35,022 bases of DNA. Source: a virus. Both the position numbers and the translations under genes were made by a program. The stretch's first letter is position 1. Each line of letters begins with the position of its first letter. The DNA lies in UHGV virus genome UHGV-0182056; one strand, 5' to 3'. Shown here piece after piece: positions 125 through 34,024 of this stretch. The notes under the pieces were generated by a model, which saw only the letters and a list, made by a program, of their open reading frames with translations, did no database searches and was not told where the DNA came from.

Positions 125-200
125 GGCCCCTTAGCTCAGTGGTTAGAGCAGGCGACTCATAATCGCTTGGTCGCTGGTTCAAGTCCAGCAGGGGCCACCA
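125..200 (+). tRNA. ileX: tRNA with CAT anticodon; sequence looks like enterobacterial tRNA-Ile2 (lysidine-modified CAU, ileX/ileY type); intact gene used as the prophage attachment site
   Basis: 76 nt with 7-bp acceptor stem GGCCCCT/AGGGGCC, D-arm AGCTCAGTGGTTAGAGC, anticodon loop CTCATAA, T-arm GGTTCAAGTCC and 3' CCA. Ile2 rather than Met is from recall of the E. coli gene and the yqjH neighbour, not from the anticodon. Confidence 0.8.
154..200 (+). repeat. attL core: 3' 47 bp of the tRNA, exactly repeated at 33978-34024
   Basis: Exact 47/47 direct repeat read from the sequence (GACTCATAATCGCTTGGTCGCTGGTTCAAGTCCAGCAGGGGCCACCA). Confidence 0.85.
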
Positions 201-7509: not shown

Positions 7510-8076
7510 TCAGGGGGATTCATTACTCTTATTTGCCGGAAATTTTCTATAAATTGTGGAAACACCCACATCAAAAATCAGTGCAATACGCTGTCTTGAT
7601 TCTCCGGCCTCGAGTAAGCGTCCAATCTGTGCCCACTGTTCGGTAGTCAACTTAGGACGGCGTCCACCTACTCTGCCTTTGGCGCGAGCTGCAGCAAGCC
7701 CCGCCCTGGTACGTTCAACTATCAGTTCGCGTTCCATTTCAGCCAGGGCACCCATGACATGAAAAAAGAAACGGCCCATTGGGGTACTGGTATCAATACT
7801 GTCAGTCAGGCTTCGGAAATTCACACCTCGCTGGCGCAACTCTTCTATCAACGTAACAAGATGCCGCATACTGCGCCCCAACCTGTCCAGCTTCCAGACA
7901 ACCAGCGTGTCTCCTGCCGATAGTGTCCTGAGCAGCTTTTTCAGCCCCGGTCTGTCGGACTTGGTGCCACTGATTTTATCCTCAAAAATCCGCTCACATC
8001 CCGCACAGTTCAGTGCATTGCGTTGCAAATCGGTGTTCTGGTCATTTGTTGACACGCGTACATAGCCAATAAGCAT
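7510..8076 (-). CDS. pin: Serine-recombinase DNA invertase of the Pin/Gin/Cin/Hin family
   Basis: MLIGYVRVSTNDQNTDLQRNAL...LVVWKLDRLGRSM...FFHVMGALAEMEREL closely resembles e14 Pin / Mu Gin as I recall them; gene abuts the left crossover site. Confidence 0.85.
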   Translation of the reverse strand: MLIGYVRVSTNDQNTDLQRNALNCAGCERIFEDKISGTKSDRPGLKKLLRTLSAGDTLVVWKLDRLGRSMRHLVTLIEELRQRGVNFRSLTDSIDTSTPMGRFFFHVMGALAEMERELIVERTRAGLAAARAKGRVGGRRPKLTTEQWAQIGRLLEAGESRQRIALIFDVGVSTIYRKFPANKSNESP

Positions 8077-8131
8077 GATCATCCCCCTGAATAAAAACCG
8101 GAGATGATGCCAGTTAGCCGTTATCTCTGCA

Positions 8132-8157
8132 TTTTCATAAACGTTGGTTTGGGAGAA
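8132..8157. other. Left recombination site (gix/pix-like) of the invertible tail-fibre segment
   Basis: TTTTCATAAACGTTGGTTTGGGAGAA; its outer 15 bp are a perfect inverted repeat of 10037-10051 and the whole resembles the 26-bp gix site as I recall it. Confidence 0.65.
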
Positions 8158-8496
8158 GCGGCCAAATTGCCTGCGATTAGTGGCTCTTTATCATCATCTG
8201 GCTGGATAAAAATCCCTGTTATAGAGGGGAAGTCTTTTATTATCCAATGGGGAAGAATCGGACCTTCTGATAGTAAAACTGGTGTTGCAACAGGAAGTTA
8301 TCCTATTGCTTTTCCAAATTCTGCATTTATGGCATTTATTGCTGAAAAAACCGCAGTATCCACAGGCCCAATAGGTATTAATTCCTGGGGAGTGTCCGAA
8401 CTAACAAAAACAGAATTAAAGGCCATTTGTGCTGCAAGGACTATATCAACTTCAGCCGCAACTGAAACAGGTGATTTTCTGGTACTGGGATATTGA
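8144..8496 (+). CDS. Silent alternative tail-fibre C-terminal cassette (no own start; would be fused to the constant fibre region after inversion)
   Basis: Open frame runs through the left crossover site and encodes ...VGLGEAAKLPAISGS..., sharing the GLGE junction with the active fibre; AT-rich. Confidence 0.6.
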
Positions 8497-8966
8497 GCTT
8501 CCATAAGGATTATAAAATGTCGAGCATAATATACTACAGCTCTATAAATAATGCATTTTACCCTGAGCATTTGAAACAAGAATATATTAAATCTAATTCT
8601 TTTCCAGCAGATGCAAAACCCGTTAAATATTCTGTTTTCGAAGAATTTGCACTTAAACCAGCACCAGAAGGAAAATATAGATGCGTTGGTGAAGATGGAA
8701 TGCCATCATGGGCAGATATTCCACCACCAACACATGAGGAACAGATTGCCGCAGCCGAATTGAAAAAGCAGCAATTGATTAACCTGGTCAACGAATACAT
8801 GAACAGTAAACAATGGCCCGGTAAAGCGGCTATTGGTCGTCTGAAAGGTGAGGAACTGGCGCAATATAATTTGTGGCTGGATTATCTGGACGCACTGGAA
8901 CTGGTTGATACCTCCAGTGCTCCAGATATTGAATGGCCTACGCCTCCAGCAGTTCAGGCCAGATGA
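8493..8966 (+). CDS. Alternative tail-fibre assembly chaperone (Tfa')
   Basis: C-terminus LWLDYLDALELVDTSSAPDIEWP parallels the C-terminus of the active Tfa (LDYIDAVTATDTSTAPDVIWP). Confidence 0.7.
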   Translation: MSFHKDYKMSSIIYYSSINNAFYPEHLKQEYIKSNSFPADAKPVKYSVFEEFALKPAPEGKYRCVGEDGMPSWADIPPPTHEEQIAAAELKKQQLINLVNEYMNSKQWPGKAAIGRLKGEELAQYNLWLDYLDALELVDTSSAPDIEWPTPPAVQAR

Positions 8967-9540
8967 CATCCGGCGCGGTGCTGGTATCTGTTGCCGTCAC
9001 CGCGTCAATGTAATCCAGCACGGCGTTAAGTCGGGTGTTTTCTGTCTGCGTCAGCTTCCGCACGGCCTGTAATTTCAGTTGAATCAGACTGATAGAAGCC
9101 ATTGCAGCATCAATCAGCGACTGGCGCTGTGCTTCTGCCGCTTCTACTGCGGCGCTATGCTGTGCCTCAGTATCGGTCACCCATTTCTCACCATCCCATT
9201 TATCGTATGGCGTTAACGGTGCGAGAGTGGTTGTTTTTTCGGGATAGTCGCCTGGTGCTGTGATTTCTTTGGCATCTCCCGTTTCGGTGTTATAGACAAT
9301 TTCACCGCGATGGTCTGGCACATATTCCCATGAGTTAAAATCTGCTGAGCGGCAGATAGCATAACCAGCTTTATGTGTAACTGGCGCATCTAAACAAGAA
9401 CATGCCGGGATACCGACGCCAACAGCAAGATATTCAGTTGATGTGGAAATATATTCCCGCGTTTCACCATCATAATTATAAACGGTAATATCTCCCGCCT
9501 TTGTGGCGATGAGTTCCTTATTTAATATAGCTTTATCCAT
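8938..9540 (-). CDS. G: Tail-fibre assembly chaperone (gpG-like), currently expressed orientation
   Basis: 200 aa; N-terminal ...ITVYNYDGETREY... typical of this family; start overlaps the fibre stop. Confidence 0.8.
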   Translation of the reverse strand: MDKAILNKELIATKAGDITVYNYDGETREYISTSTEYLAVGVGIPACSCLDAPVTHKAGYAICRSADFNSWEYVPDHRGEIVYNTETGDAKEITAPGDYPEKTTTLAPLTPYDKWDGEKWVTDTEAQHSAAVEAAEAQRQSLIDAAMASISLIQLKLQAVRKLTQTENTRLNAVLDYIDAVTATDTSTAPDVIWPELLEA

Positions 9541-11099
9541 CAGGCAGCCCTCACGATATAATTAAAGGCAATGTTACGGGGTCGATTTTCGTTTGCAGTT
9601 GGAACAATTCTTGAAGCATCAAGGCCAATCACTTTTGGGTAAACAGCGCCGTCTGCTCTTTCTGTCACCATACTTCTGGTTAAGGAGAAATAACTATTGT
9701 TTGTAGAGGGACTCAATGGCACTATGGCCCCCTTAAACGAGCCTGCTGTTTCCCATATTGAATAATTTTCAGTGTTTACAGTTCTGAACTCACCATAGAT
9801 ATTACGTATGGCATCGCCCTGAGCTGATAATATTGCCCTCCCCGTATCCATACCACGTCCGTCATCCCAGCCACGAATAAACTCACCACGTAAATCAGGC
9901 AATTTTTTTGTCGGGTAAGCCTTTGCCAGTTCCGGGTATTCTTCAGCAGAAAATGCCGCACCGTTGCATTTCAGCCAGCCTGTTGGCGGAGTGGCGGAAG
10001 GCCACGGAACAGGCACACCAACGGGTAATGCCGAACCTTCTCCCAAACCAAGGTATGCGAGAAGACCAGCTACATCCTTTCCACTCAAATTAGTCAGCGT
10101 ATTGTCCAGCGGTTGTTTACCTGCCAGTGCATTAAGCATTGTCGTGGCAAAGTTCGGGTCATTCCCCAGCGCCGCCGCCAGTTCGTTCAGTGTATCCAGT
10201 GCCGCAGGTGCAGAACCCACCATTGCCGCTATCGCCGATTTCACAAAAGCCGTAGTGGCAATCTGTGTATTGTTGACCGACTGCGCCGCCGTGGGGGCTG
10301 TTGGCGTTCCGGTGAGTTCCGGACTCAACAGCGGCACTTTCAGTGCCAGCGCATTATTAATGGTGGTACTGAATTTCGGATCATTGTTAATGGCTACGGC
10401 TATTTCTTTCAGCGTGTCCAGCGTGGCTGGCGCACCATTAATCAGGGCTGTCAGTGCCGCCTGAACAAACGCGGTGGTCGCAAGTTGCGTGGTATTATTC
10501 CCCGCCGCTGGCGTCGGCGCTTTGGGGGTTCCGGTAAATATCGGGCTGGCTTTTGGCGCATACTGTGAATGTGGGTCCGCTGCGGCAAGGTGTTTTGCCA
10601 TCAGGTCATCCACATACACCTTCAGCTCCAGTGCCTTATCATCCACATACTTGCGAGTTGCCAGTACTACAGCAGGGTCGATTTTCAGGGTGATATTGTC
10701 CGTACTGCTGGTAATCAGCACCATGCGCACGGTCTGGGTGCGCCCGCTGCCTTCAGCCAGTTGCGGCTTATAGCTTTCCGGGCAGTTGCCCACGGCAATC
10801 AATGCCCCGGACTCATCAAACAGGCCCACTTCACGTATCCACCAACCGCCCTCGTTTTCAGGGATCACCTGTTCAGCAATAATCTGGCTGCTGTTCTGCG
10901 GGTCGATATAGAGCATATTCAGCGCAGCCCGGCGTTTCTCATTTACCAGTGCAGTCTGCTTTGCGTCCGGCGTTGGCAATACTCCGCCACCATCGCCCAC
11001 CGCCATATGGGTAATTTTTAGCGGCACACCGAGCGCGGCGGAACTGGCAAGTTTCGCCGCGCCAATATCCGTCAGCAGGGTATAAAATTTTGTGCTCAT
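9540..11099 (-). CDS. H: Tail fibre protein gpH (constant N-terminal part plus invertible C-terminal part)
   Basis: N-terminus MSTKFYTLLTDIGAAKLA...MAVGDGGG resembles P2 gpH; the C-terminal ~170 aa lie inside the invertible segment. Confidence 0.85.
   Translation of the reverse strand: MSTKFYTLLTDIGAAKLASSAALGVPLKITHMAVGDGGGVLPTPDAKQTALVNEKRRAALNMLYIDPQNSSQIIAEQVIPENEGGWWIREVGLFDESGALIAVGNCPESYKPQLAEGSGRTQTVRMVLITSSTDNITLKIDPAVVLATRKYVDDKALELKVYVDDLMAKHLAAADPHSQYAPKASPIFTGTPKAPTPAAGNNTTQLATTAFVQAALTALINGAPATLDTLKEIAVAINNDPKFSTTINNALALKVPLLSPELTGTPTAPTAAQSVNNTQIATTAFVKSAIAAMVGSAPAALDTLNELAAALGNDPNFATTMLNALAGKQPLDNTLTNLSGKDVAGLLAYLGLGEGSALPVGVPVPWPSATPPTGWLKCNGAAFSAEEYPELAKAYPTKKLPDLRGEFIRGWDDGRGMDTGRAILSAQGDAIRNIYGEFRTVNTENYSIWETAGSFKGAIVPLSPSTNNSYFSLTRSMVTERADGAVYPKVIGLDASRIVPTANENRPRNIAFNYIVRAA
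10038..10063. other. Right recombination site (gix/pix-like), inside the tail-fibre gene at the constant/variable junction
   Basis: TTCTCCCAAACCAAGGTATGCGAGAA, inverted relative to 8132-8157; encodes the shared ...LGLGE... junction. Confidence 0.65.
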
Positions 11100-11701
11100 G
11101 GATTCACTCTCATTGTGTCAATAACATGGACCGCCCCGCCTTCATGCGCGGTGCCGCCGGAAATAATTGTTTCGTTGATATACGGATAGATCGTGATTTC
11201 TTCGCCAAGATAGCTGGCGGCTCCCACCCAATGCGGGCCGCTGGTCTGCAGGTTGATGGACATGCCGATCATGTGACGGCTACATGGTTTGGCATCGCTT
11301 ATCAGTCGCTCAAGTTCCAGATAGGTATCTTCAGTGATGCCCTGGTCCTGCACGCCGATATCCAGGCGAAACGTGCCCGGTGTTTCTCCGGTCTGCCACC
11401 ACTCAATAATGCGGATCAGAAAGCCGAACGGCTCCACCACCCGCCGCACGGCACTGGTGGTCCCTTTATGCTGATGAATATAAAAAGCATCCTTCACCAC
11501 CTGGCGCTTGACGCTTTCTGTCCAGCCCTCGTCCCAGCGATCCACAGAGAACGCCCAGGCGAGGTAAGGCAGGAAACTGACCGGACAGGTTGCCGGATTC
11601 CACAAGTCACGCAGCGGCACTTGCAGATCAGAAATCCCGCTGCAGGTTTGCGCCAGTCGGCGCTCCAGTGGTGTTGAACCCGGAGGCAGCAGACTATTCA
11701 T
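11096..11701 (-). CDS. I: Baseplate protein gpI
   Basis: 201 aa, P2 position between J and H. Confidence 0.8.
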   Translation of the reverse strand: MNSLLPPGSTPLERRLAQTCSGISDLQVPLRDLWNPATCPVSFLPYLAWAFSVDRWDEGWTESVKRQVVKDAFYIHQHKGTTSAVRRVVEPFGFLIRIIEWWQTGETPGTFRLDIGVQDQGITEDTYLELERLISDAKPCSRHMIGMSINLQTSGPHWVGAASYLGEEITIYPYINETIISGGTAHEGGAVHVIDTMRVNP

Positions 11702-22350: not shown

Positions 22351-23049
22351 TTATTTGTTTCTTCTTTGTTCACGCCTTGTCTTGGCTTCGATAAGGCGTT
22401 GAGGTTCAGTGTAAAGCCGTTCTAAAAAAAGATAGGTAAAATCTTCAAGATCCTCAGCAGCAGCTTTATCCAAAATACCTTCATGCGCTCCATCATTTCC
22501 GTCATCTTTAACGCATTCAGCTAGTTCCCTTAAAGCTTCAGGCAGTAGATGATTATCAAATAACCACTCCATTCTTAACCCTAGGCTTCTCCTTATTTTT
22601 TGCGCAGGCCCTTGCTCCCCATCAGGAAGAAGTCCTTTTGTGGCATAATCAAGGCAAAGCCTAAACATGGTTGCTGCTGCATTATAACAACCTATAGCCA
22701 AACATTTCGCCCCTTCCTCATATGCACTATTGATATGCTCAGGTAAGAACTCTGGTGGCTCCTCTACTGCTAAGTCTGCCGGTGATATAGGCCTAACAAC
22801 CTCTGCAACTTCCTTTAAGCCGAATATTCCACTTTCCCAATTATAGCCATCTAAAGTTTTATTTTTCGTTAAAGGTCTGCAAAGAAACATTGTCGTTTTA
22901 TGACACTCTCGGCAAACACAATAGACCTCGTACTCGTATGTTTTACCCCCGCCCAATGCATTGTAAACCCTAGTGCAATTCAGCCCATTCACATCAAACG
23001 CTATTTTTTGTGATCCACATCGTGGACAGTCATCCACTAACATAACCAT
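22351..23049 (-). CDS. Accessory protein: N-terminal Cys4 zinc ribbon plus alpha-helical C-terminal domain; possible HEPN/DUF4145-like fold; function unknown
   Basis: 232 aa, inserted between Q and cos where P2 has no gene; CPRCG...CRECH; C-terminal GNDGAH resembles the GN-AAH core I recall for DUF4145, but no Arg at the Rx4-6H position; strong RBS GGAGGAG; AT-rich. Confidence 0.45.
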   Translation of the reverse strand: MVMLVDDCPRCGSQKIAFDVNGLNCTRVYNALGGGKTYEYEVYCVCRECHKTTMFLCRPLTKNKTLDGYNWESGIFGLKEVAEVVRPISPADLAVEEPPEFLPEHINSAYEEGAKCLAIGCYNAAATMFRLCLDYATKGLLPDGEQGPAQKIRRSLGLRMEWLFDNHLLPEALRELAECVKDDGNDGAHEGILDKAAAEDLEDFTYLFLERLYTEPQRLIEAKTRREQRRNK

Positions 23050-23160
23050 GTCAATTACTCCTCCCTATGAAAAAAATGAGTTGAAAAATTGAATATTCAC
23101 GACTTAAAAAGCTAGCCTATTTAACACCATAATTTCATTAATTCAACCATGAGCGCGCGC

Positions 23161-23180
23161 TCGTATCCCCGCCACGCCTG
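23161..23180. other. cos-like cohesive-end / packaging site
   Basis: Reverse complement reads GGCGTGGCGGGGATACGAGC, whose first 13 nt match the P2/186 cohesive-end sequence as I recall it; located next to Q as in P2. Confidence 0.5.
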
Positions 23181-23220
23181 CCCGCTTTATGTAGTGGTTT
23201 TCATGCGCCTGCATGACATA

Positions 23221-23247
23221 AGCAAAAGCCCGCCACTCCTGGCGGGC
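23221..23247 (-). terminator. Rho-independent terminator after the 203-aa cargo gene
   Basis: Hairpin GCCCGCCA-loop-TGGCGGGC followed on the minus strand by CTTTTGCTT. Confidence 0.5.
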
Positions 23248-23338
23248 CTCAGCTAAAACGATCCTCAAACGATCATGCGGATTCATGCAGCATAGACATG
23301 CACAATCTCCAAAGCGGGCATCGAGACTTTTTGGAAAC

Positions 23339-23950
23339 CTACGTAACCACAGTTAATGTGTGCATCCTGTCTCGAATTGCATCACACGTCTCATCAAAAA
23401 GCTTGGTGATGGTTGTACGGTTCAACTCCGCCTCTTTCCAATAATTTTGCCCGTCAAATTCTGGATCGCTATGCTGAAACGATATTGACTCTGAAAGGCA
23501 TTCCTTCCGGAAACGGTCCAAGATTATATAAACCTCTGGTGAGATGAACGGTTTGTTAGATTCAACACTTGTGACAAAAGTGTTAAATGCATCAAAAAAA
23601 ACTTTCAACCTTCTAAATTTTCTCTCTTCAAATGGTTCGTTGGGGTCAACATGATCCAGCGCAGGCCTCAGCTTAAGCACGCTTTCTCTGGTTTCAAACA
23701 TCGAATTCCAAATGAGACTATATGCTGATAACTCCTTATCAAAATACGCTTTCGTTACATAAACAGAATTGTCTAACTTAGCCTTTATTCTTTCATTAGT
23801 TGCACTCAGTTGTGATTGAAATTCAGCAATATCTTTGTTTAGCCGCGACTTATATCTTTCTAAATAAACTTTCCCGATCCAAACAAATATGCCAGATGCA
23901 ACAAAAGACACCCCACCCAACGAAGCCAGAACTTTAAAGACTAAATCCAT
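23339..23950 (-). CDS. Accessory membrane-anchored protein of unknown function (N-terminal transmembrane helix, coiled-coil, cytoplasmic domain)
   Basis: 203 aa; hydrophobic segment LASLGGVSFVASGIFVWIG near the N-terminus; AT-rich; lies where P2 carries old/tin. Confidence 0.5.
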   Translation of the reverse strand: MDLVFKVLASLGGVSFVASGIFVWIGKVYLERYKSRLNKDIAEFQSQLSATNERIKAKLDNSVYVTKAYFDKELSAYSLIWNSMFETRESVLKLRPALDHVDPNEPFEERKFRRLKVFFDAFNTFVTSVESNKPFISPEVYIILDRFRKECLSESISFQHSDPEFDGQNYWKEAELNRTTITKLFDETCDAIRDRMHTLTVVT

Positions 23951-23998
23951 TGCGCCCCCACCTACAAAAATAGTATTCCATTATAAGCTAATACATTT

Positions 23999-24259
23999 TT
24001 AATCAAACAGGGGATAATTCGCGTCAACCTCATCACTTCTCTGCTCTACCCTAGTGACTTCCATCAAAAACCCCAGGCCGTCATATAGCGAAACGGGGAA
24101 TTCCAGCTCAAGCCAGAAGCAGTCTTCATAGATGCGGCCCAACCAAAAACCTCCGCCACACTCCTTTGGGCGTTGAAAGAAGACCCAGTCGCCAAGGGTA
24201 AACCGTTCCAGCACCTGGCCCCGATAAATAATCTGGTGATTACTGTCTTTTTTACCCAT
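23999..24259 (-). CDS. Accessory small protein of unknown function
   Basis: Track ORF 23999..24310 begins at a TTG; likely ATG start at MGKKDSNHQ; no family recognised. Confidence 0.4.
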   Translation of the reverse strand: MGKKDSNHQIIYRGQVLERFTLGDWVFFQRPKECGGGFWLGRIYEDCFWLELEFPVSLYDGLGFLMEVTRVEQRSDEVDANYPLFD

Positions 24260-24332
24260 GGCTAACGCCTCGCTACTCTCGTTGTTCAACCTTGCTGACG
24301 TCAGATTCAAGTTCTTACATCAGGAACGTTCC

Positions 24333-24918: not shown

Positions 24919-27333
24919 TTAATACAGGTTCCGCCACTTATCATCTTCCTGCAAACGCTGGTTCCGATAGAAGACACGCAGGCCTGCTCCTGACGGAATA
25001 CTGCCGCCGCGAAGGAGTAAATCGACCTCTTTCTCGCTGCCATCAAATCCTCTGGACTTCAGTTCATAGACGAGCTGCTGGCGTTGATGGTCTGTAATTC
25101 GCTGTTTGTAGTCTCTACGCCGTTTCGGTTTCACCAGGCGTAACCTTGCAGCCAGTTCCCGGCGCTCTTTTTTGTTCATACTGTGCAGGTAATCGTGCAA
25201 TCCCTTGTCATCCATGCGGGTAATGTCCGTTCTGGTGTCCCCATCAGCTGATTTATCTTTCCCCTGTTTGTTCAAATTTTCAGCAAGGGGACAGTTATTG
25301 CCACGAGTCCAAGGGGCGCAAGCGCCCTGGTCGGCTGCCACCTCCTGAACGTCAACGGCCTTACGAACCATTTTCCACTTCACTGCATGAGTGCAGATCT
25401 TGCCCTCTGCAATGGGTGACCAGATGCCATAAATACGAATACCGTGATCGCCATAGGCGGTTGGCTCTTCGTTGATTTCATAAGCGGTTCTGATGAGTTG
25501 ATATTTGCGGGGAACCAGTACGCCGCCCTGATTCATGATGTAGGTGGCAAAACAACCAGCATCAGCAGCAGCCAGGATGGCATCAAGGCGCGGGTTATCC
25601 AGTACCGGCGCACCTGCTTTTTTGTCACCCTGTTGCCTTGCCGCCTGACCAGCCAGCAATCGCAGTTCACGGTAAGCCTGACGCCCCGGAATGCCAAAGA
25701 AGCGGAATTGCTGAACACGATGCAGAGACGCCCAGGCATTAACGTATTCAGCGTTATCACGCAGGGATTTACCCGTTTCCTTACTGATCTCGCCAGCCAG
25801 ACCACGCCCGTCAATATTCTTACTGATATATTTCGCAATGTAGCTTGTCGGCGTTCCTTTGCGCGGGTTTATCAGCTCAGACTTAAAGCGTGGCCCCGTG
25901 TTATTGCCCAGCTCCTCGCGGTCTTCACGGATGGCAAACTTACGCAACAATGCAGTAATGGCGCGGCGGTCTTTTTTGCGCATGAAACACAACAGGTGCC
26001 AGTGAACTGTGCCGTCATGATGCGGCTCAGCCACCCGCACGCCATACCAGCGCAACCCGGCTTTGTGCATAGCCTTACGAAATGCAGCAAACATGCCGAC
26101 CAGATAATCGCTGCTTTGTCTTACTGTCGCGTTGGTCCAGGTCGGGTTTGGCCTGCCGTTATTTAGCGTGGAATGGAAACGTGACGGACAGGTGATGGTG
26201 TAGAAAACGGCGCAGTCACCACGCATTTCCGCGATAAGCTCCAGGCCTTTAACACAGGCCATCATCTCGTTGCGGCGATGCGCCGGGTTGCTGCTGCTGG
26301 CGTTTACCACATCCTCCATGTTCAGCGTGTCGCCGTCTTCGTTCACCAGTTCATGAGAACGGAAAAACTCCAGCGACTTACGGCGCTGCTCACGTTTATG
26401 CATCACGGCTTCATAGCTGACATAGGGAGATGCTTTTTTGCTGACCAGGCAGACAGCACGCAACTGCTCTTCCCGCCATTCGCAACGCATCTTCCATAAT
26501 TTCCGATACCACCAGTCGGCGCAAAGCATACGCGCCAGCGAACCCGGAATGAGTTCATAAGGCACAGGTTTGCGGCGGTTTCTTTTCCGGCGGAGTTGCT
26601 CAAACGCAGGCGGTATGACATCCAGTCGCAGGGTTTCTGCAGCCACCTTTTCCCATGTCTTGCGGATTTCTTCTGGCTTAACATCATCGGAGGCGTACAA
26701 ATCACCACAAGCGGCATCAAGACACATGCTCATATGCGCAGCGACAAGGGTGGACAGGCGTTTCACCTGATCCTGACTCATTTCAGGCAGGATCAGCAGG
26801 CCGTCCAGCCCTTCATGGCTTGCCATAAAGCGAAAAGAAGTGGATAGCTGACTGTCGCGTACATGCTCCAGTCGTTCCAGACATGGCTTAATCGTCTCAC
26901 GCAAATAGCGGGAATAAGCCTTTGGTCTGCCCAGGCTGCTGAAGTATTCAATACGTTGCATCAGCGGCTTGCTGATATGGGAAGGCTGAGCGTTAACGTC
27001 CGCCAGAATGACCATGTCTGGATTAAAACGCTGCTGCTCATGCGCCAGCTTTGCCCGGCTAATGAGCTTATCCTGCTCCATTTCGCGCTGGACAGGATCA
27101 CGGGATTCATTAAAGAAATAACGCTCCCAGACCTGATCACTCAGTGCCTCGCGGCGCAGTTGTTCCTGCTCGTTATCGGCAGCGTACAGAGTGATCAGGT
27201 TTGAAAGCGCAGAAACCGGCGCAACTTCCGCCGGGTCCAGATAAGGGTTAATGGCCTTTTTCGGGATGTTCCATGAGAATGCTGCGGCGACCTCGTTAAA
27301 GCCGCTGCAGTTGTTCATATCAGCATGGCTCAT
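24919..27333 (-). CDS. A: Replication initiation protein gpA (rolling-circle nickase)
   Basis: 804 aa; size and position fit P2/186 A. Confidence 0.85.
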
Positions 27334-28187
27334 GCACGTACTCCGTACACGGCAGAACTATCCACGCCACGCGAATAATCAAATCCCACCCAGCAGCGCG
27401 GCCCGGAAACAGCAATGATTTCTGTTGCTGATTTACCCTCGCCAGCTGCCACACCGATGCTGCGTTTTGCTTTGATGTAGTGGTGAGTGAAATTGCGATA
27501 CAGAGAACGAATCAGGGATGTGTCACTGTTAGAAACAATGACCGGATGTCCTTCTGATGACCGATGTTCAAGAATGGATGCCAGGTGATACTGGTCATCT
27601 TCAGTGAAACCATCAGTGTGATAGCCGGAAAACGTACCGTCATAAGGCGGATCGCAATACACCACATCCCCCGCCTTCAACATCGCCAGCGTTTCATCAA
27701 AGCTGGCGCAGATAAACGTTGCTCGCTGGGTTTTTTCTGCAAATGCGCGAATTTCTTTTTCAGGGAAATACGGATTTTTATAATTACCGTAGGGAATGTT
27801 GAAATGCCCGCTCTTGTTATAGCGACATAAACCACGGTAACCGTGACGATTGAGATACAGGAAATATACTGCTTTCATGAAATCAGTAATTTCAGTTGAG
27901 TAATTAAACTCCTGCCTTATGTTGTAATAAGCCAGCTCACTGTTTGCTTCCTCAAATAAAACACTGGCACGAGATATAAACGCCTCACAATCAGCGGCAA
28001 TCTTTTTATAGAGGTTGATTAAATCAGGATTAATATCCGCAACCAGATAGCTGGGATAATCCGTCTCCATTATCACAGCACAGGAACCAGCGAAAGGTTC
28101 AACCAGTCGCGGGCCAGCAGGAAGATGTTTTTTCAGTTCGGACATTATGGCGGTTTTATTTCCCGCCCATTTCAGGATGGTGCTCAT
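27330..28187 (-). CDS. Dam-like N6-adenine DNA methyltransferase
   Basis: Likely start at [11 protein letters not shown]; motifs LKWAGNK, EPFAGS and DPPY resemble E. coli Dam; start overlaps the upstream stop (ATGA). Confidence 0.8.
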
Positions 28188-28411
28188 ACAGCACCTCCGT
28201 TGTAATGTTTGCCTTTCAGCTCTGCGATTTCCTGACAGGTAATGCAAAGCTGCACACCCGGAATGGCACGGCGGCGTGCTGGCGGAATTGGCGCTTCACA
28301 CTCAATGCAAAGCACGCGGGACACGCCCGGTGTTTTGGCACGGGCAGCACGGATATGGCGCTGGCGTTCTTCTTCAACGCGCTGCTGTACGAGATCCATT
28401 GCATCAGCCAT
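28184..28411 (-). CDS. TraR/DksA-family C4 zinc-finger protein
   Basis: 75 aa; CIECEAPIP...CITC. Confidence 0.7.
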   Translation of the reverse strand: MADAMDLVQQRVEEERQRHIRAARAKTPGVSRVLCIECEAPIPPARRRAIPGVQLCITCQEIAELKGKHYNGGAV

Positions 28412-28650
28412 TAGTGGACCTCCTGCGCTTCGTTCTGGATTGCTTCAGCGGTCACACGTAGCAGTTCTGCTGCTTCGACGTGGCTTAGCTGGCGGGATGT
28501 AATATGACACGCAAGGCTATCAAGGCGGGCAGCCATTGCCTCAGCCCTTGCCCGACGTTCTTCCAGACGAGCCTCTGTCAGTAAAATATTAAGTCCTGCG
28601 TCATCCGGTCCGCTTTTAGTCGAGAGGGTTTCAATATTACGCATAATCAA
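28411..28650 (-). CDS. Early-region hypothetical protein
   Basis: 79-aa ORF in the early operon; no family recognised. Confidence 0.5.
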   Translation of the reverse strand: MIMRNIETLSTKSGPDDAGLNILLTEARLEERRARAEAMAARLDSLACHITSRQLSHVEAAELLRVTAEAIQNEAQEVH

Positions 28651-28711
28651 TTCTCCTGAATTTAGATAAAGGAATGCCCGGCGGGTTTACGCCATGAATT
28701 TCATTAATTGG

Positions 28712-29053
28712 TTAATTCGGCATGGCTAGCCGTCTGGGAAATAAGCTCACCACTGCACGAAGATGATTCATTACTTTAATCAACTCCCGCTTTTCGTCAG
28801 TGGTCAGCTCATTAATGCTGATGCTATGACGTTCAGCTGGAATTTTTGCTATAAAGAATATGGCAGCCAGTGCCCGTTTATTTTGTTCGCTATTAATATC
28901 CCGTGGATCACGCATCTCTTTAATAAACCGCTCAAGCTCTGACTCAATATTCAGGCCAAAAACTTTCGCCCTTAACTCCGCAATATGATTAAGTCCATTC
29001 AGGCGTTCGCCGGGGCTTAATGGAACAGTCGCCGCAGCGCCTTCAATAGCCAT
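28712..29053 (-). CDS. Early-region hypothetical protein
   Basis: 113-aa ORF between cII and the replication genes. Confidence 0.5.
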   Translation of the reverse strand: MAIEGAAATVPLSPGERLNGLNHIAELRAKVFGLNIESELERFIKEMRDPRDINSEQNKRALAAIFFIAKIPAERHSISINELTTDEKRELIKVMNHLRAVVSLFPRRLAMPN

Positions 29054-29247
29054 TTGTTCCCCCGTTTTTTCGTTGATAGTTCTGCCAGCAATTCATCTTG
29101 TGAACGGCACGGATGCCAGCGTTTACCATCCTTACCCATTATCCAGCCGTGACCGTAGTGCATTGCCGGACTTTGTTTTACCAGCAGCGATGCAAATGAT
29201 GGTTCTTTCGTCAGCATAAGCACCTCACAGCAAACCGAATGAAGCAC
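29017..29247 (-). CDS. Early-region small protein directly downstream of cII (position of 186 fil)
   Basis: 76-aa track ORF; start uncertain. Confidence 0.35.
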   Translation of the reverse strand: MLHSVCCEVLMLTKEPSFASLLVKQSPAMHYGHGWIMGKDGKRWHPCRSQDELLAELSTKKRGNKWLLKALRRLFH

Positions 29248-29734
29248 CGAGGCCAGTCACGGTATCAACTGCACTCGCCATCGCAGGGTTAGCCTGTAAA
29301 CGGGCCTGCAATGACACAGCAGCCAGCGCCATCAGTCGTGTTACAGAGTTAATGCTGCTGATAGCATCACGACGACCTGCACTGGTTTTTACATCGCCAG
29401 ATACCGCACCTGCAGCAACACGCCCGATCTCTGCGGTTGCGCTCATGACGTAATGTGGCAGTTTCTCTTTTGCCACCTCATTAATCGGTACACATGGCAG
29501 ACAATGAATCTGTGCCAGAAAACCATCTACCAGCGTTGAATCTTCAGTCAGATCGGTAAGCAGCCAGATTTCTGACGGCGTGAGCTGATGTGATTGTTCC
29601 GGGTTAAGCTTGTTACGCAGCGTCTGGACGTTCATTCCCGCGCGTTCTGCCAGCTTTGCCATGTTGTGACGCAGTGCGAAAGCCCGGCAGGCTTCATCAA
29701 AATGCGGATGTTTGGAAACACGATAATCAAACAT
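29225..29734 (-). CDS. cII: CII-like lysogeny-establishment activator (phage 186 type)
   Basis: 169 aa; MFDYRVSKHPHFDEACRAFALRHNMAKLAERAGMNVQTLRNKLNPEQ... resembles 186 CII as I recall it. Confidence 0.8.
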   Translation of the reverse strand: MFDYRVSKHPHFDEACRAFALRHNMAKLAERAGMNVQTLRNKLNPEQSHQLTPSEIWLLTDLTEDSTLVDGFLAQIHCLPCVPINEVAKEKLPHYVMSATAEIGRVAAGAVSGDVKTSAGRRDAISSINSVTRLMALAAVSLQARLQANPAMASAVDTVTGLGASFGLL

Positions 29735-29768
29735 GATGTAACACCTTTTCTATCCCAAAATGGAACTA

Positions 29769-30005
29769 TCAGGCTTGCATTGCGACTTCGCAGCCTTGGG
29801 CCGCTTCCATCGTCAACGCGAACATGTTGATTTCGATAAGGCTGTTAACTCCGGCTTTTTTCCTGATGGGAAGGCGGTTTTCCCGGATCATTTGGCGGGC
29901 ATAGCTAGGCTTGTAACCAGTACGACGACAGAACTCATCCAGTGTGATGAATGGCTCAGATATCACAAGGTTGATGCTGGGGCGCATTGAAAAATTACTT
30001 TTCAT
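29769..30005 (-). CDS. apl: Apl/Cox-like excisionase and lytic-switch regulator
   Basis: 78 aa, first gene of the lytic operon, divergent from cI. Confidence 0.7.
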   Translation of the reverse strand: MKSNFSMRPSINLVISEPFITLDEFCRRTGYKPSYARQMIRENRLPIRKKAGVNSLIEINMFALTMEAAQGCEVAMQA

Positions 30006-30106
30006 GATGCACTATTCCTCAGTTTGTGTTTAAAAACTTCACTATTCGGATGTATTCGCACATATACCGAACACCACAAAAGCGATAATAGGATCACAAT
30101 TGAGAT

Positions 30107-30721
30107 ATGTCAAACACAAAAGAAAACCCTAATGAGATTTCAACTTTCATTTTTCCATCTCAAAGTGGGGGAAGAGAGGCCATAACACGCATTCTTCAGG
30201 CTTATGGATTCAGCACAAGACAAGCTCTATGTGATCATCTCGGCGTCTCTCAAAGCACAATGGCTAACCGCTGGATGCGTGACACTTTCCCACATGACTG
30301 GCTTATAGCCTGCCATCTGGACACAGGTGTACCCTTGCTTTGGCTAACTACTGGTAAGGGCACTCCAAAAACCACGCCAAATGAAGATCACGGATTAACT
30401 TTGCAATTAAGCGAAATCACAAATGGGATTCTAAACAACACAACCTTGATTCATTATGACCTACACCTAATTCCTCAAAACACCACAGATCCGTTTCTTG
30501 TCAAATTTGAATCGACGACGTATCTCGTCAGTGAATATAAAGGCGAGATCAATGACGGCACCTGGCTGATTGAGATAGATGGTTTTGCGAGCATCAGACA
30601 GGTTTACCGTCTGCCTGGCGGGCGAGTTCGTGTTGAAAACGGCCCTGCATCATTTGAGTGTGCGGCCTCTGATGTAAAAGTTTTAGGGAAAGTGGCAAGC
30701 AAAATAGATAACGTGGACTGA
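30107..30721 (+). CDS. cI: CI immunity repressor (186 type)
   Basis: 204 aa, divergent from apl; N-terminal HTH-like region (STRQALCDHLGVSQSTMANRW). Confidence 0.75.
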   Translation: MSNTKENPNEISTFIFPSQSGGREAITRILQAYGFSTRQALCDHLGVSQSTMANRWMRDTFPHDWLIACHLDTGVPLLWLTTGKGTPKTTPNEDHGLTLQLSEITNGILNNTTLIHYDLHLIPQNTTDPFLVKFESTTYLVSEYKGEINDGTWLIEIDGFASIRQVYRLPGGRVRVENGPASFECAASDVKVLGKVASKIDNVD

Positions 30722-30745: not shown

Positions 30746-31294
30746 ATGAGAGTTTTAGTCACAGGCGTATTAATTTTGTCATCATTTGCTGCAATTGCAG
30801 CACCTGAACAATTCAAAAACATTAATGACTTGATGGAAAACTATAACGATTATCCAACTTATACCGTAGACGGTAAGGATTTTCCATCTTTCAAAATTTT
30901 ATCTGAAAAGCCTTTACACATCCAAATCTCGCCGCGCACTTTATCAGGGAGTTCAACGAAAGATATTAAGTACGAATCAGACAGGGCAGCCATTTACGCA
31001 GCATATCGTACTTTGTATCAAACGCCTGCAGACAGGGTTAAAGTCACAGTATTACCTATTTCAATTACCCCCCAGCCTCGGAAGGTAGAGTATATGACGG
31101 AATATAAATATGATTTTAGCATTACAAAAAAGCAGGCAATAAATTTACTCCGCAGACACAGCAATATATTGAATGAAGACCAGTTAATGTCCGCCAATGG
31201 TGAATGGAGCAAAGCATTTGAAAAGTGCTGTTACCTTGAAGAAGGTAAGCCCGGTTTATCAATATTTGCTAAAGAGTTAATCACGCAAAGGTAA
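30746..31294 (+). CDS. Moron: secreted/periplasmic protein of unknown function, apparently in the lysogenic cI-int operon
   Basis: 182 aa with N-terminal signal peptide MRVLVTGVLILSSFAAIAAP; AT-rich; stop 5 bp before the int start. Confidence 0.55.
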   Translation: MRVLVTGVLILSSFAAIAAPEQFKNINDLMENYNDYPTYTVDGKDFPSFKILSEKPLHIQISPRTLSGSSTKDIKYESDRAAIYAAYRTLYQTPADRVKVTVLPISITPQPRKVEYMTEYKYDFSITKKQAINLLRRHSNILNEDQLMSANGEWSKAFEKCCYLEEGKPGLSIFAKELITQR

Positions 31295-32350: not shown

Positions 32351-33703
32351 TCAATCAAAAAAATCCTTTTTGAAATCGCTACTACTAGATAATCCAGGTC
32401 TTATTTTTTCAATAACATCTTGACAAGCCGCAGGTTGATCATCAAGTGCCTTGGACGCTTTTTCCTTTATTTTTGGTATATTATTAAACCTACCTTTCAT
32501 CATTCCATCCGGCCCATACGCACCCCAAATACCTGCAGCGCAGATATTCACTATCAATTCAAAACATTCAAGATCATTCATTAATAAAGCAATATCTTTA
32601 TCATAAACGCTAGCACTTCTAGCGAATGAGTTCGCCTCATCAAATGTTGAAGATCCTGCTTTTGAAAAAATATTACTAATTAATTTAGCTCTAGCCCATT
32701 CTTTATGCTTCACAACATTCATCAATACAGGGCTGAATTTATACTTATTCAACACATCATCAATATTATTCATAAAAAACTTATCTAATACAGCCTTGTC
32801 CAATGCCAGAAGACTTCTTACTATTTGAACAGGATGTCTCAAATATGTATGTTGATCTGCTGTACTTGTAGACGAAATTGTACTTTCAAACATTTTATTA
32901 ATTCTTAAATAAAATATATCATCTAAATCCTTTATCAAATTTGAATTTGTTGAAATTGACTCCATTAAAAACTTAGTTTTATTTTCATCTGAACTGCACT
33001 CCTCTAAAACCTGTTTTTTTATTTGTTGAAGAACTTGATCATTCAAAGGATTACTCGACAGTCCAAGAAGATATCTCTTAGCATTAACTTGTATCTGTTC
33101 GTTCGGATTATCAAGAGATTGGAGTAGTTTTTTTAATAGATAGGAGTAACCATCATGATGAAGATTCTTTACACCTTCATTTACTACTGTAGCATGATCT
33201 TGTATGTTTGTTGTAGGAAATAAATATGCATTTGTTAATTTTGATATAATTTCATCTGCAACTTGTGTTGTAGAAAGAATTGGTTTTGAAAGGAATCTGC
33301 CAATTGTTTCTGAAAAGACATATCTTGCTTCTTCGGCTGTTGGTTTGTGACCGGAAGGATGCGCTGCTTTGTTTCTAAGAGTTTTCAATACGGTTAGAAA
33401 ATCAGCATCTATATCAGTAATTATTTTTTCAGATTTTAAGCGATTCAGCAAATCATTCTCAAAAACCTTTTGCTCTTCCCTTTTTTTATTTATCTCTGCA
33501 AATATGGCCCTTGCAACTTTATTTGTCGATGCCATTCCATTTAGTTTTTTTAATAAATCTTCAAATATAGCGATAAAAGATAAAACAACACATGCGCGAT
33601 GAGCACCTGTCATATAGCAAGTTAGTGCTTCGCGCATATACTCCTTAAGCTCTACATCAACAATATCACTTATAAGTTCTTCCATGTCCCTCAAACTTGA
33701 CAT
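32351..33703 (-). CDS. Accessory protein: N-terminal HEPN-like (DUF4145-like) domain with an Rx4H motif plus a large C-terminal helical domain; candidate single-gene abortive-infection/defence protein
   Basis: 450 aa, strongly AT-rich, between int and attR; ...LTVLKTLRNKAAHPSGH... gives R-x4-H; RBS GAGGGG upstream. Confidence 0.5.
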   Translation of the reverse strand: MSSLRDMEELISDIVDVELKEYMREALTCYMTGAHRACVVLSFIAIFEDLLKKLNGMASTNKVARAIFAEINKKREEQKVFENDLLNRLKSEKIITDIDADFLTVLKTLRNKAAHPSGHKPTAEEARYVFSETIGRFLSKPILSTTQVADEIISKLTNAYLFPTTNIQDHATVVNEGVKNLHHDGYSYLLKKLLQSLDNPNEQIQVNAKRYLLGLSSNPLNDQVLQQIKKQVLEECSSDENKTKFLMESISTNSNLIKDLDDIFYLRINKMFESTISSTSTADQHTYLRHPVQIVRSLLALDKAVLDKFFMNNIDDVLNKYKFSPVLMNVVKHKEWARAKLISNIFSKAGSSTFDEANSFARSASVYDKDIALLMNDLECFELIVNICAAGIWGAYGPDGMMKGRFNNIPKIKEKASKALDDQPAACQDVIEKIRPGLSSSSDFKKDFFD

Positions 33704-33977: not shown

Positions 33978-34024
33978 GACTCATAATCGCTTGGTCGCTG
34001 GTTCAAGTCCAGCAGGGGCCACCA
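33978..34024 (+). repeat. attR core: truncated 3' tRNA copy (47 bp), identical to 154-200
   Basis: Exact repeat; upstream tRNA sequence is absent, so not a second tRNA gene. Confidence 0.85.

Follow-up and report, generated by a model that had tools for sequence, protein, structure and literature searches.

Dam genes of Fels-2-like prophages and other phages

The closest described counterparts of the gene studied here are the dam genes of Fels-2 (STM2730), SopEPhi (orf8), RE-2010 (ELphiS00010), and Cartapus. They belong to the same 285-amino-acid (aa) family (73 to 95% identity), lie between a TraR-like zinc-finger gene and the replication gene A with matching overlaps, share the Y-R-L hairpin variant and the C-terminal tail, and show no substantial difference from the copy described here. 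The TraR-dam-A module is annotated in Fels-2, SopEPhi, and RE-2010 and in many Klebsiella and Escherichia coli prophages. Notes in the Fels-2 and SopEPhi records refer to the "retron EC67 DNA adenine methylase," a label in use for these relatives since 1990. The enzyme so named comes from an E. coli prophage related to 186 and is counted here among the closest counterparts. The 1990 Ec67 paper of Hsu, Inouye, and Inouye, the title of which names "Dam methylase functions," reportedly described this family member as a Dam methylase.

Orphan Dam methylases are also carried by other phages with Dam-positive hosts, i.e., P1 (Dmt), T2/T4, HP1, and VT-2, and these enzymes methylate GATC. P1 packaging requires Dam methylation of the pac site, and we know of no Dam-methylation requirement for cos packaging in the P2 family. 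P1 Dam and T4-type Dam were 36% and 22% identical to the protein studied here, respectively, and their genomic contexts differ from that of the present gene. Dam-like genes have been ascribed to all of these phages (PMC7556043), and the role of phage Dam, in a review-type statement of the same source, "is still not well understood." Like host Dam, P1 Dam can trigger the retron-Sen2 toxin system via msDNA methylation (bioRxiv 10.1101/2020.06.22.160242); that study tested host and P1 Dam, and "P2-like" refers there to retron Eco1, so that we did not use it as evidence on Dam proteins of P2-like phages. M.EcoMIV of the ST131 strain EC958 is a prophage "Dam homolog" that is silent in the lysogen; it was considered as possibly the same gene, and the prophage was not found in two 50-kb stretches of the EC958 chromosome. 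In 186 and P2, the slot 5' of A is occupied by orf84 (PAPS-reductase-like) and orf83, respectively, which are likewise non-essential and joined by an ATGA or other short overlap, but their products are unrelated to Dam and neither phage has a methylase in this slot. No putative methylase is encoded by P2 (PMC3091744).

The dam module was present in 1,241 of 5,426 complete E. coli genomes (about a quarter), with the E. coli annotation [quoted passage not shown] At a protein identity of at least 60%, 56 phage records were retrieved, including Fels-2, SopEPhi, RE-2010, and Cartapus; the 90% cluster comprised 4,038 members, and the exact protein occurred on 116 contigs. The present copy was 100% identical over its whole 1,082 bp to E. 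coli strain 28A18CPO003A. An accessory dam of Fels-2/186-like (P2-family) prophages is already known and ordinary, and as a discovery the gene carries little weight: it is accessory, its annotation is routine, and the prophage family that carries it is very common.

An orphan methyltransferase gene of the Dam family

The window is a 35,022-nucleotide stretch, the virus genome UHGV-0182056, in whose coordinates all positions are given (Table 1). The prophage is of the 186 type and is inserted at a tRNA gene; its TraR-like gene, dam, and gene A all lie on the minus strand. We consider it very probable that the gene is the accessory dam of a Fels-2/186-type (Peduoviridae) E. coli prophage, i.e., an orphan methyltransferase that most likely acts on GATC, is made early in the lytic cycle, is coupled to A, and supplements host Dam.

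Table 1. Features of the dam locus, in window coordinates
Feature	Coordinates	Strand	Basis or remark
Gene A, rolling-circle replication initiator/nicking endonuclease, 804 aa	24919..27333	minus	PF05840 Phage_GPA, E=4.6e-127
Hairpin CCGGCG-N7-CGCCGG with a T-rich run after it, possibly corresponding to 186 tM1	27216..27234	minus	Fold and comparison with 186; tentative
ATGA overlap, dam stop (TGA)/gene A start (ATG)	27330..27333	minus	
dam, 285 aa	27330..28187	minus	Dam-family (D12 class, alpha-type motif order) orphan N6-adenine DNA methyltransferase
GGAG, Shine-Dalgarno sequence for gene A	27341..27344	minus	Inside the clade-specific C-terminal tail of dam (codons about 262-285)
DPPY codons (residues 179-182)	27642..27653	minus	Contain a GATC; align with E. 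coli Dam D181-Y184 (181-184)
ATGA overlap, TraR stop (TGA)/dam start (ATG)	28184..28187	minus	
TraR/DksA-family C4 zinc-finger gene, 75 aa, C-x2-C-x17-C-x2-C	28184..28411	minus	PF01258 and TIGR02419 above cutoff
GGAGGTG, Shine-Dalgarno sequence for dam	28192..28198	minus	5 nt upstream of ATG, within the TraR coding end
DUF2732 gene, at the head of the chain of overlapping genes	28411..28644	minus	PF10809, E=1.3e-28; PGAP annotation of identical DNA
pR-like early lytic promoter, TTGACA-17-TATTAT	30085..30113	minus	GATC at 30092-30095; position of annotated 186 pR

The dam open reading frame (ORF), as read from the sequence and by script, runs from an ATG (28187..28185) to a TGA (27332..27330). 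A 305-aa frame opening with TTG at 28247 is an unlikely alternative start: Dam homology begins at residue 4 of the ATG form, the annotated relatives all use an 858-nt gene, and the Shine-Dalgarno sequence is spaced for the ATG. The same GGAGGTG or a near-identical string precedes dam in most dam-carrying relatives.

The preliminary description had called the product a phage-borne orphan Dam-like N6-adenine methyltransferase, an identification that was borne out by profiles, structures, and defense-system models alike. Full-length matches were obtained to Pfam PF02086 (E=1.7e-76; 257.7 bits, with a cutoff of 22) and to NCBIfam TIGR00571 "dam" (E=1.5e-95; 320 bits, with a cutoff of 114.85), and the protein matched the E. 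coli Dam structures 2g1p and 4gol (E about 9e-73). Membership in the Dam family is settled, since annotated copies number in the thousands and E. coli Dam, whose structure is solved, shares 45% identity (about 269 residues aligned). Fold family and motif order are those of E. coli Dam, from which the phage protein differs by N120 to Arg, G39 to Cys, and an extra C-terminal tail of about 15 residues. The phage gene is carried in a lytic operon, whereas the host gene is chromosomal and belongs to the aroK-aroB-damX-dam operon. Because its score against the chromosomal Dam equivalog NF008152/PRK10904 (285.4 bits) lay below the cutoff of 441, we regard the phage dam as a separate subfamily and not as an orthologue of host Dam.

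No restriction endonuclease adjoins dam, which is flanked by the TraR-like gene and gpA here and in the annotated relatives alike; the methyltransferase is an orphan. The best PADLOC model was oMTase ("orphan methyltransferase"; 8.7e-110), which argues against dam being the modification half of a phage-borne restriction or defense system. Such a system would need its effector elsewhere in the prophage, and two DUF4145 proteins, matched by PADLOC to PD-T7-3 (2.9e-16) and PD-T7-4 (1.2e-6), provide candidate cargo genes. These, however, lie 4 to 5 kb away, in other transcription units and at variable cargo positions, and dam keeps its neighbors in relatives with other cargo, such as RE-2010, which has an abortive-infection gene instead. 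Since a GATC-cleaving partner would also be pointless in a Dam-positive host, we consider a two-part system of this kind extremely improbable.

The three motifs listed in the preliminary description, LKWAGNK, EPFAGS, and DPPY, were located at residues 5, 30, and 179. Together with a hairpin at about residues 113 to 140, they follow the order of E. coli Dam, which is the alpha type (X, I, target-recognition region, and IV). Realignment to E. coli Dam and T4-type Dam, a check that the same description had suggested, retained the catalytic DPPY in register with the E. coli motif, and DPPY was kept in 93 of the 94 unique clade proteins. The residues by which E. coli Dam contacts GATC are K9, Y119, N120, L122, R124, P134, and Y138 (PMC4417163). 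Six of these seven (K9, Y119, L122, R124, P134, and Y138) were identical in the phage protein, and the DNA-contact residues were kept across lineages down to 48% identity. On these residues, the target of the phage enzyme is most likely GATC.

An active enzyme of altered or relaxed specificity, one that methylates GATC plus near-cognate sites or some other short adenine motif and thus serves as a broader anti-restriction "hypermethylase," would account for several departures from E. coli Dam. The position of the base-contacting N120 (PMC4417163) is Arg in 87 of the 94 unique proteins of the clade, which is of the Felsduovirus type, including the present one; motif I (FxGxG) reads F-A-G-S-C, the second Gly being replaced by Cys throughout the clade; the score falls short of the chromosomal Dam equivalog, as noted above; and relaxed specificity is known from some prophage methyltransferases (PMC7556043; PMC4659465). 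On the other hand, the readers of GATC base pairs 3 and 4 (L122, P134, and R124) and of the first base pair (K9 and Y138) are all kept. The N120 position is itself variable among the Dam homologues compared, the alignment giving Asn in the ESSI-2, YenM, and P1 Dams and Ser in T4-type Dam, which also has Leu at the second Gly of motif I. The P1 and T4 Dams are GATC specific. The compositional footprint described below was likewise specific to GATC, with no effect for the CATG control, and we judge a change in specificity to be improbable.

Position and junctions of dam in the early operon

The gene order of the prophage, pR-apl-cII-fil-...-DUF2732-zinc finger-(variable genes)-A with cI-int divergent, matches the curated 186 record. 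From cI to gene A, the minus strand held a single strong sigma70 match (11/12), a pR-like site at the position of the annotated 186 promoter. This promoter and the collinearity with the 186 map substantiate the early-operon location that had been proposed for dam. We rejected the possibility that a promoter or terminator inside the operon frees dam from pR control: the promoter scan found no internal minus-strand promoter between the two, terminator-like matches were no commoner than in shuffled sequence, and the only minus-strand match of this type between pR and dam was a weak 5-pair stem inside the TraR gene.

According to the 186 record, pR is repressed by CI, and the interval from the zinc-finger gene to A holds non-essential genes. 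In the early lytic operon (pR-apl-cII-fil-DUF5347-DUF2732-TraR-dam-A), dam is the last gene but one; it would therefore be silent in the lysogen, and its product would appear only upon infection or induction, slightly ahead of the initiator A and alongside it. Microarray data show a joint change of Fels-2 dam (STM2730) and A (STM2729). The lysogen methylome suggested as a check in the preliminary description would be uninformative, given an early promoter under CI repression and a host with a Dam of its own, and prophage Dam enzymes would be missed in such data.

The TraR-like product scored 43.5 bits against PF01258 (cutoff, 24.9) and 65.8 bits against TIGR02419 (cutoff, 59.7). It matched the F-plasmid TraR chains in the RNA polymerase complexes 5w1s and 6n57 (E about 3e-9) and YbiI 2kgo (5e-11) and fell under the equivalog cutoffs for both F TraR and YbiI. 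Homology to TraR in these complexes suggests that the protein may bind the secondary channel of RNA polymerase and affect transcription. Its gene is equivalent to 186 Orf80 and P2 Orf82, of which the 186 homologue is annotated as "unknown function; not essential" in the 186 record. The direct adjacency of the TraR-like gene and dam in the preliminary description holds for this prophage and is common but not obligatory, as other genes lie between the two in about 21 of 110 relatives, SEN8 among them, and nothing points to a functional TraR-Dam partnership.

Both overlaps reported earlier, at the TraR-like stop/dam start and at the dam stop/gene A start, were confirmed and read ATGA on the reverse complement; gene A, labeled "replication endonuclease" in identical E. 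coli DNA, opens with the ATG at 27333..27331. Upstream, the DUF2732 stop and the TraR start share TAATG (28409-28413). ATGA was present at the dam start in 107 of 110 dam-carrying relatives, which, with family matches far above threshold, argues that the gene arrangement is not due to chance. The dam/A overlap in relatives is ATGA, GTGA, or 10 nt.

Stop and start codons overlap by 1 or 4 bases at each step from DUF2732 through TraR and dam to A, so that ribosomes ending one gene could reinitiate on the next. Each gene also has its own Shine-Dalgarno sequence, and an overlap is therefore no proof of coupling. For the orf84/A junction of 186, which is also ATGA, the record states that [quoted passage not shown] and by analogy gene A of this prophage is probably translated efficiently only if dam is translated too.

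This analogy can be carried further, to an ORF that is mainly a translated "leader" bringing ribosomes to gene A and whose methyltransferase activity is dispensable or lost. The unrelated and non-essential PAPS-reductase-like orf84 occupies the same slot in 186, where A is reported to need its translation, and the C-terminal tail of dam, which was not found in alignments of the E. coli, P1, ESSI-2, and YenM Dams, carries the Shine-Dalgarno sequence for A and shows suppressed synonymous change (dS of 0.11 in the tail versus 0.45 in the core, with dN higher in the tail). However, dam as a whole is under purifying selection (median dN/dS of 0.17), its DPPY motif and DNA-contact residues are conserved as described above, and its 285 conserved codons are more than a mere leader would need. 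The GATC footprint is equally at odds with a leader only, and we find such a reading highly improbable. A leader role is compatible with methylation and is probably true in addition. Since dam probably doubles as a translated leader for the essential gene A, its deletion may be polar, and the result may be mistaken for a methylation phenotype.

The candidate equivalent of tM1 lies about 100 nt into gene A, and the annotated 186 tM1 is at +85..+112 of A; a similar hairpin occurs in Fels-2, SEN8, ST15, and MLG42. Because the hairpin failed the terminator scan, the equivalence is tentative.

GATC composition, the pR GATC, and possible roles

The ratio of observed to expected GATC (O/E) was compared between the early operons of dam-carrying and dam-less relatives, with dam itself masked. 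The medians were 0.88 and 0.47, respectively (p=5e-9), and the CATG control was flat. Avoidance of GATC was thus much weaker in the dam-carrying than in the dam-less relatives. Outside the Fels-2-like lineage the values were 0.62 (dam-carrying) and 0.26 (dam-less; p=1e-4), whereas within it no footprint was seen (0.89 versus 0.96; p=0.77), and the footprint is confounded with lineage and an indirect sign of dam activity. A special GATC depletion of the present prophage was rejected, as the difference between its O/E (0.68) and that of the neighboring chromosome (0.83) is modest and such values are informative only across many relatives.

As an accessory enzyme acting on GATC, the phage Dam would top up limited host Dam, such that packaged and rapidly replicating phage DNA would be fully methylated at GATC. 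Full methylation would guard against enzymes that attack unmethylated or hemimethylated GATC (MutH and DpnII/MboI-type restriction) and would lift the counterselection of GATC that is observed in dam-less relatives. What the phage gains from the gene is not obvious, given that its host makes Dam anyway. Anti-restriction, host regulation, mismatch repair, and defense priming, all raised in the preliminary description, are generic possibilities for this gene. Roughly one complete E. coli genome in four encodes, beside the host enzyme, a further Dam that is normally silent and could switch on at induction. Over-produced Dam triggers at least one retron defense, and phages of this kind may be sensed via dam.

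A GATC in the early promoter was present in 31 of 44 unique promoters of dam-carrying prophages and in 5 of 30 of dam-less ones (Fisher p=5e-6, before stratification). The association with dam was rejected after stratification by lineage, as the counts became 29/33 versus 4/5 within the Fels-2-like lineage and 2/11 versus 1/25 outside it; the promoter GATC is a lineage-conserved element only. In the Fels-2-like lineage, this GATC lies one base upstream of the -10 hexamer of pR and is as invariant as the core positions of the -35 and -10 elements. It is conceivable, though we think it rather unlikely, that the lysis-lysogeny switch is sensitive to Dam methylation through the binding of RNA polymerase, CI, or SeqA, and that a phage Dam encoded in the pR operon closes a feedback loop by keeping new promoter copies fully methylated in lytic growth. 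Both the invariance of the promoter GATC and the weaker avoidance of the site in dam-carrying relatives lead to testable hypotheses on why phages of Dam-positive hosts keep Dam. The remainder of the pR spacer varied between immunity types, and the spacer as a whole probably also holds the CI operator.

An orphan Dam-family gene chained to TraR and A in the early operon

The window is almost throughout one P2-family prophage, bounded by a tRNA-Met(CAT)-type gene at one end and by a direct repeat of its 3' part at the other; in the closest E. coli genome, the outside flank is nfeF-nfeR-aer. Tail, lysis, head, and terminase genes are followed by a 186-type control region, with int and cI on the plus strand and apl, cII, fil, DUF5347, DUF2732, TraR, dam, and A on the minus strand. 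The sole strong sigma70-type promoter ahead of the early genes (TTGACA-17-TATTAT) is at the position of 186 pR, which is repressed by CI according to the curated 186 record. No internal minus-strand promoter-like site was detected by a promoter scan between this pR-like promoter and dam, and terminator-like matches in a terminator scan were no more common than in shuffled sequence. The dam gene is the second-last gene of this CI-controlled early operon and is chained to TraR and A by overlaps.

As claimed in the preliminary description, the stop of the TraR-like gene overlaps the dam start, and the dam stop overlaps the start of A (ATGA on the reverse complement in both cases). A third junction, TAATG, joins the upstream DUF2732 gene with the TraR-like gene. 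Shine-Dalgarno sequences were found for the TraR-like gene (AGGAGGT), dam (GGAGGTG, 5 nt ahead of the start), and A (GGAG, 7 nt ahead of the start). The TraR-like product belongs to the TraR/DksA family of C4 zinc-finger proteins (PF01258 and TIGR02419, both above cutoff) and is related to F-plasmid TraR, which is known from RNA polymerase complexes, and A encodes a P2-type replication initiator (PF05840; E = 4.6e-127).

Features of the window discussed in the text
Feature	Coordinates	Strand	Basis or remark
tRNA-Met(CAT)-type gene	125-200	+	one prophage end
Serine recombinase/invertase	7510-8082	-	Resolvase domain, E = 2.3e-53
Tail-fibre genes	about 8100-11100		
Cargo block	22351-24310	-	between portal gene and DinI/Tum-like gene
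Gene A, 804 aa	27333 to 24919	-	sequence read and ORF map
dam/A overlap	27330-27333	-	ATGA
dam tail region, codons about 262-285	27330-27404	-	holds ribosome-binding site for A
dam, 285 aa	28187 to 27330	-	sequence read and ORF map
TraR-like/dam overlap	28184-28187	-	ATGA
TraR-like gene, 75 aa	28411 to 28184	-	sequence read and ORF map
DUF2732/TraR-like junction	28409-28413	-	TAATG
pR-like promoter	30113-30085	-	
GATC in pR spacer	30092-30095		one base upstream of -10 hexamer
182-aa ORF	30746-31294	+	between cI and int
450-aa DUF4145 gene	32351-33703	-	PADLOC match to PD-T7-3, 2.9e-16
Direct repeat, at least 44 nt of tRNA-Met 3' part	33978-34021		other prophage end

The proposed identity of the gene product as a Dam-like orphan methyltransferase was also correct. 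The protein matched Pfam MethyltransfD12 along its entire length (E = 1.7e-76) and the NCBIfam "dam" subfamily TIGR00571 with 320 bits (cutoff, 114.85), scored below the cutoff of the chromosomal Dam equivalog (285 versus 441 bits), and had E. coli Dam as its closest solved structures (E about 9e-73; 45% identity). The motifs LKWAGNK, EPFAGS, and DPPY, named in the same description, begin at residues 5, 30, and 179. Using contact residues from PMC4417163, an alignment with E. coli Dam showed that K9, Y119, L122, R124, P134, Y138, and D181-P-P-Y184 are kept, whereas N120 is replaced by Arg and the second Gly of FxGxG by Cys. Arg occupies the N120 position in 87 of 94 unique proteins of the Fels-2-type clade, and the residue there is Asn in the P1 Dam homologue and Ser in T4-type Dam. 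Because other Dam homologues in the comparison also differ from one another at this position, GATC is still the best prediction for the target. The dam gene is under purifying selection (median dN/dS of 0.17 in 37 comparisons); it is an intact, conserved, orphan member of the Dam family.

Prevalence and the accessory slot among relatives

The gene is an ordinary accessory gene, already known from a very common family of prophages. The 1082-bp stretch of TraR and dam was present in 1,241 of 5,426 complete E. coli genomes, with 100% identity in one strain, and is annotated there as [quoted passage not shown]. Contigs with the exact Dam protein numbered 116, and 4,038 members make up its 90% cluster. 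A phage collection yielded 56 records with a Dam at ≥60% identity and neighbors identical in kind, including Fels-2, SopEPhi, RE-2010, Cartapus, and many Klebsiella prophages. Annotations of Fels-2 and SopEPhi point to "retron EC67 DNA adenine methylase", and retron Ec67 is located in a 186-related prophage. Phage Dams have long been known (P1, T-even phages, HP1, and VT-2), and their role "is still not well understood" (PMC7556043). Novelty is limited to the GATC-avoidance footprint and the side observations on a promoter GATC described below.

The position of dam is a variable accessory slot. In 186 it is filled by an exonuclease, DUF5405, and a PAPS-reductase-like gene, and in P2 by DUF5405; Fels-2 has dam there, and SEN8 has dam together with an exonuclease. 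The 186 record marks the genes lying between the zinc-finger gene and A as non-essential. It also states for orf84, directly upstream of A, that [quoted passage not shown], and places a terminator, tM1, at 85 to 112 nt inside A, which is expected to be active if A is untranslated. The orf84/A junction is ATGA, as at dam/A in the window. A GC hairpin at +99 to +117 of the window gene A failed the terminator scan.

Using the conserved CII protein, we gathered 160 further 186-like loci; distinct species genomes account for 80 of these. Among 110 dam-carrying loci, ATGA was present at the dam start in 107; TraR lay immediately upstream in about 85, was separated from dam by other genes in about 21, and was not found in 4. 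The dam/A overlap in relatives was ATGA, GTGA, or 10 nt. A C-terminal Dam tail of about 15 residues is common to the clade; E. coli Dam, P1 Dam, and the Dams of ESSI-2 and YenM lack it. Synonymous divergence was 0.11 in the tail versus 0.45 in the core, and nonsynonymous divergence was higher (small sample of 24 codons; non-independent pairs), a pattern that fits nucleotide-level constraint from the embedded translation-initiation signals of A. A small predicted hairpin spans part of the Shine-Dalgarno sequence and ATG of A.

An intact dam gene seems to have been overlooked in the deposited records of two Yersinia phages. In vB_YenM_42.18 (locus L002, 3480-4304), an open frame for a 274-aa Dam homologue bears only the annotations of two tiny hypothetical proteins, and the start annotated for gpA overlaps it; in vB_YpM_MLG42 (locus L007, 3001-3858), the interval of a 285-aa dam has no annotation.

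Possible role of the enzyme and GATC sites

The dam gene would be expressed only upon infection or induction, its product would methylate GATC, and ribosomes would be handed from dam to A. The enzyme probably supplements limited host Dam, such that fast-replicating phage DNA becomes fully methylated, a role that would fit a compositional footprint of GATC. A classical view holds that MutH drives counter-selection of GATC in enterobacterial phages. We compared early operons with dam masked (loci L014 to L173 and reference phages; about 24919-30134 in the window). The median observed/expected frequency of GATC was 0.88 in dam-carrying and 0.47 in dam-less operons (p = 5e-9), while that of the control CATG was flat (0.93 versus 1.01); phage 186 had 0.20, and the window had 0.77. 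GATC avoidance is strong in dam-less operons and weak in dam-carrying ones. The difference held outside the Fels-2-like lineage (0.62 with dam versus 0.26 without; p = 1e-4) and was absent within it (0.89 versus 0.96), so the footprint, partly phylogenetic and confounded by lineage, is suggestive.

For the idea that the enzyme primes defence systems, retron-Sen2 is the single real precedent: when host or P1 Dam is over-produced, it methylates the msDNA of this retron and frees the toxin (bioRxiv 10.1101/2020.06.22.160242). Those Dams are of the host and P1, and none is of the P2 family.

A GATC is present in the pR spacer of the window and at the identical offset in Fels-2, SEN8, MLG42, and ST15-OXA48phi14.1, despite their differing immunity regions; 186 pR has no spacer GATC. 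The site is nearly invariant in the Fels-2-like lineage: across 34 unique promoters, the GATC positions carried 2.0, 2.0, 2.0, and 1.8 bits, at the level of the -35/-10 core, compared with 0.2 to 1.1 bits at the remaining spacer positions. An association of this site with dam carriage disappeared once lineage was controlled. The site may be part of a CI operator, since the spacer is frequently palindromic, or it may be a candidate Dam-sensitive promoter element; Dam-controlled prophage promoters exist elsewhere (PMC12455584).

Cargo genes and the tail-fibre region

The 182-aa ORF has a hydrophobic, signal-peptide-like N terminus (MRVLVTGVLILSSFAAIAAP...), had no Pfam or PADLOC match, and is missing at the equivalent position in 186, Fels-2, and the ST15 phage. 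As it is inserted between cI and int, it is probably expressed along with them in the lysogen.

The 450-aa DUF4145 gene, matching a candidate defence gene, has the integrase gene on one side and the right-hand tRNA repeat on the other and is therefore inside the prophage, in an att-proximal cargo position. The cargo block next to the portal gene corresponds to a cos-proximal hot spot that houses retrons Ec67 and Ec86 in related prophages. Its products are a 232-aa DUF4145 protein weakly matching PD-T7-4 (PADLOC, 1.2e-6) and, with no family match, two hypothetical proteins of 203 and about 86 to 103 aa.

The serine recombinase/invertase gene adjoins the tail-fibre genes, which suggests that this region is an invertible host-range segment. 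The region is not collinear with that of the E. coli prophage sharing 100% identity over dam, and fibre gene lengths and offsets differ between the two.
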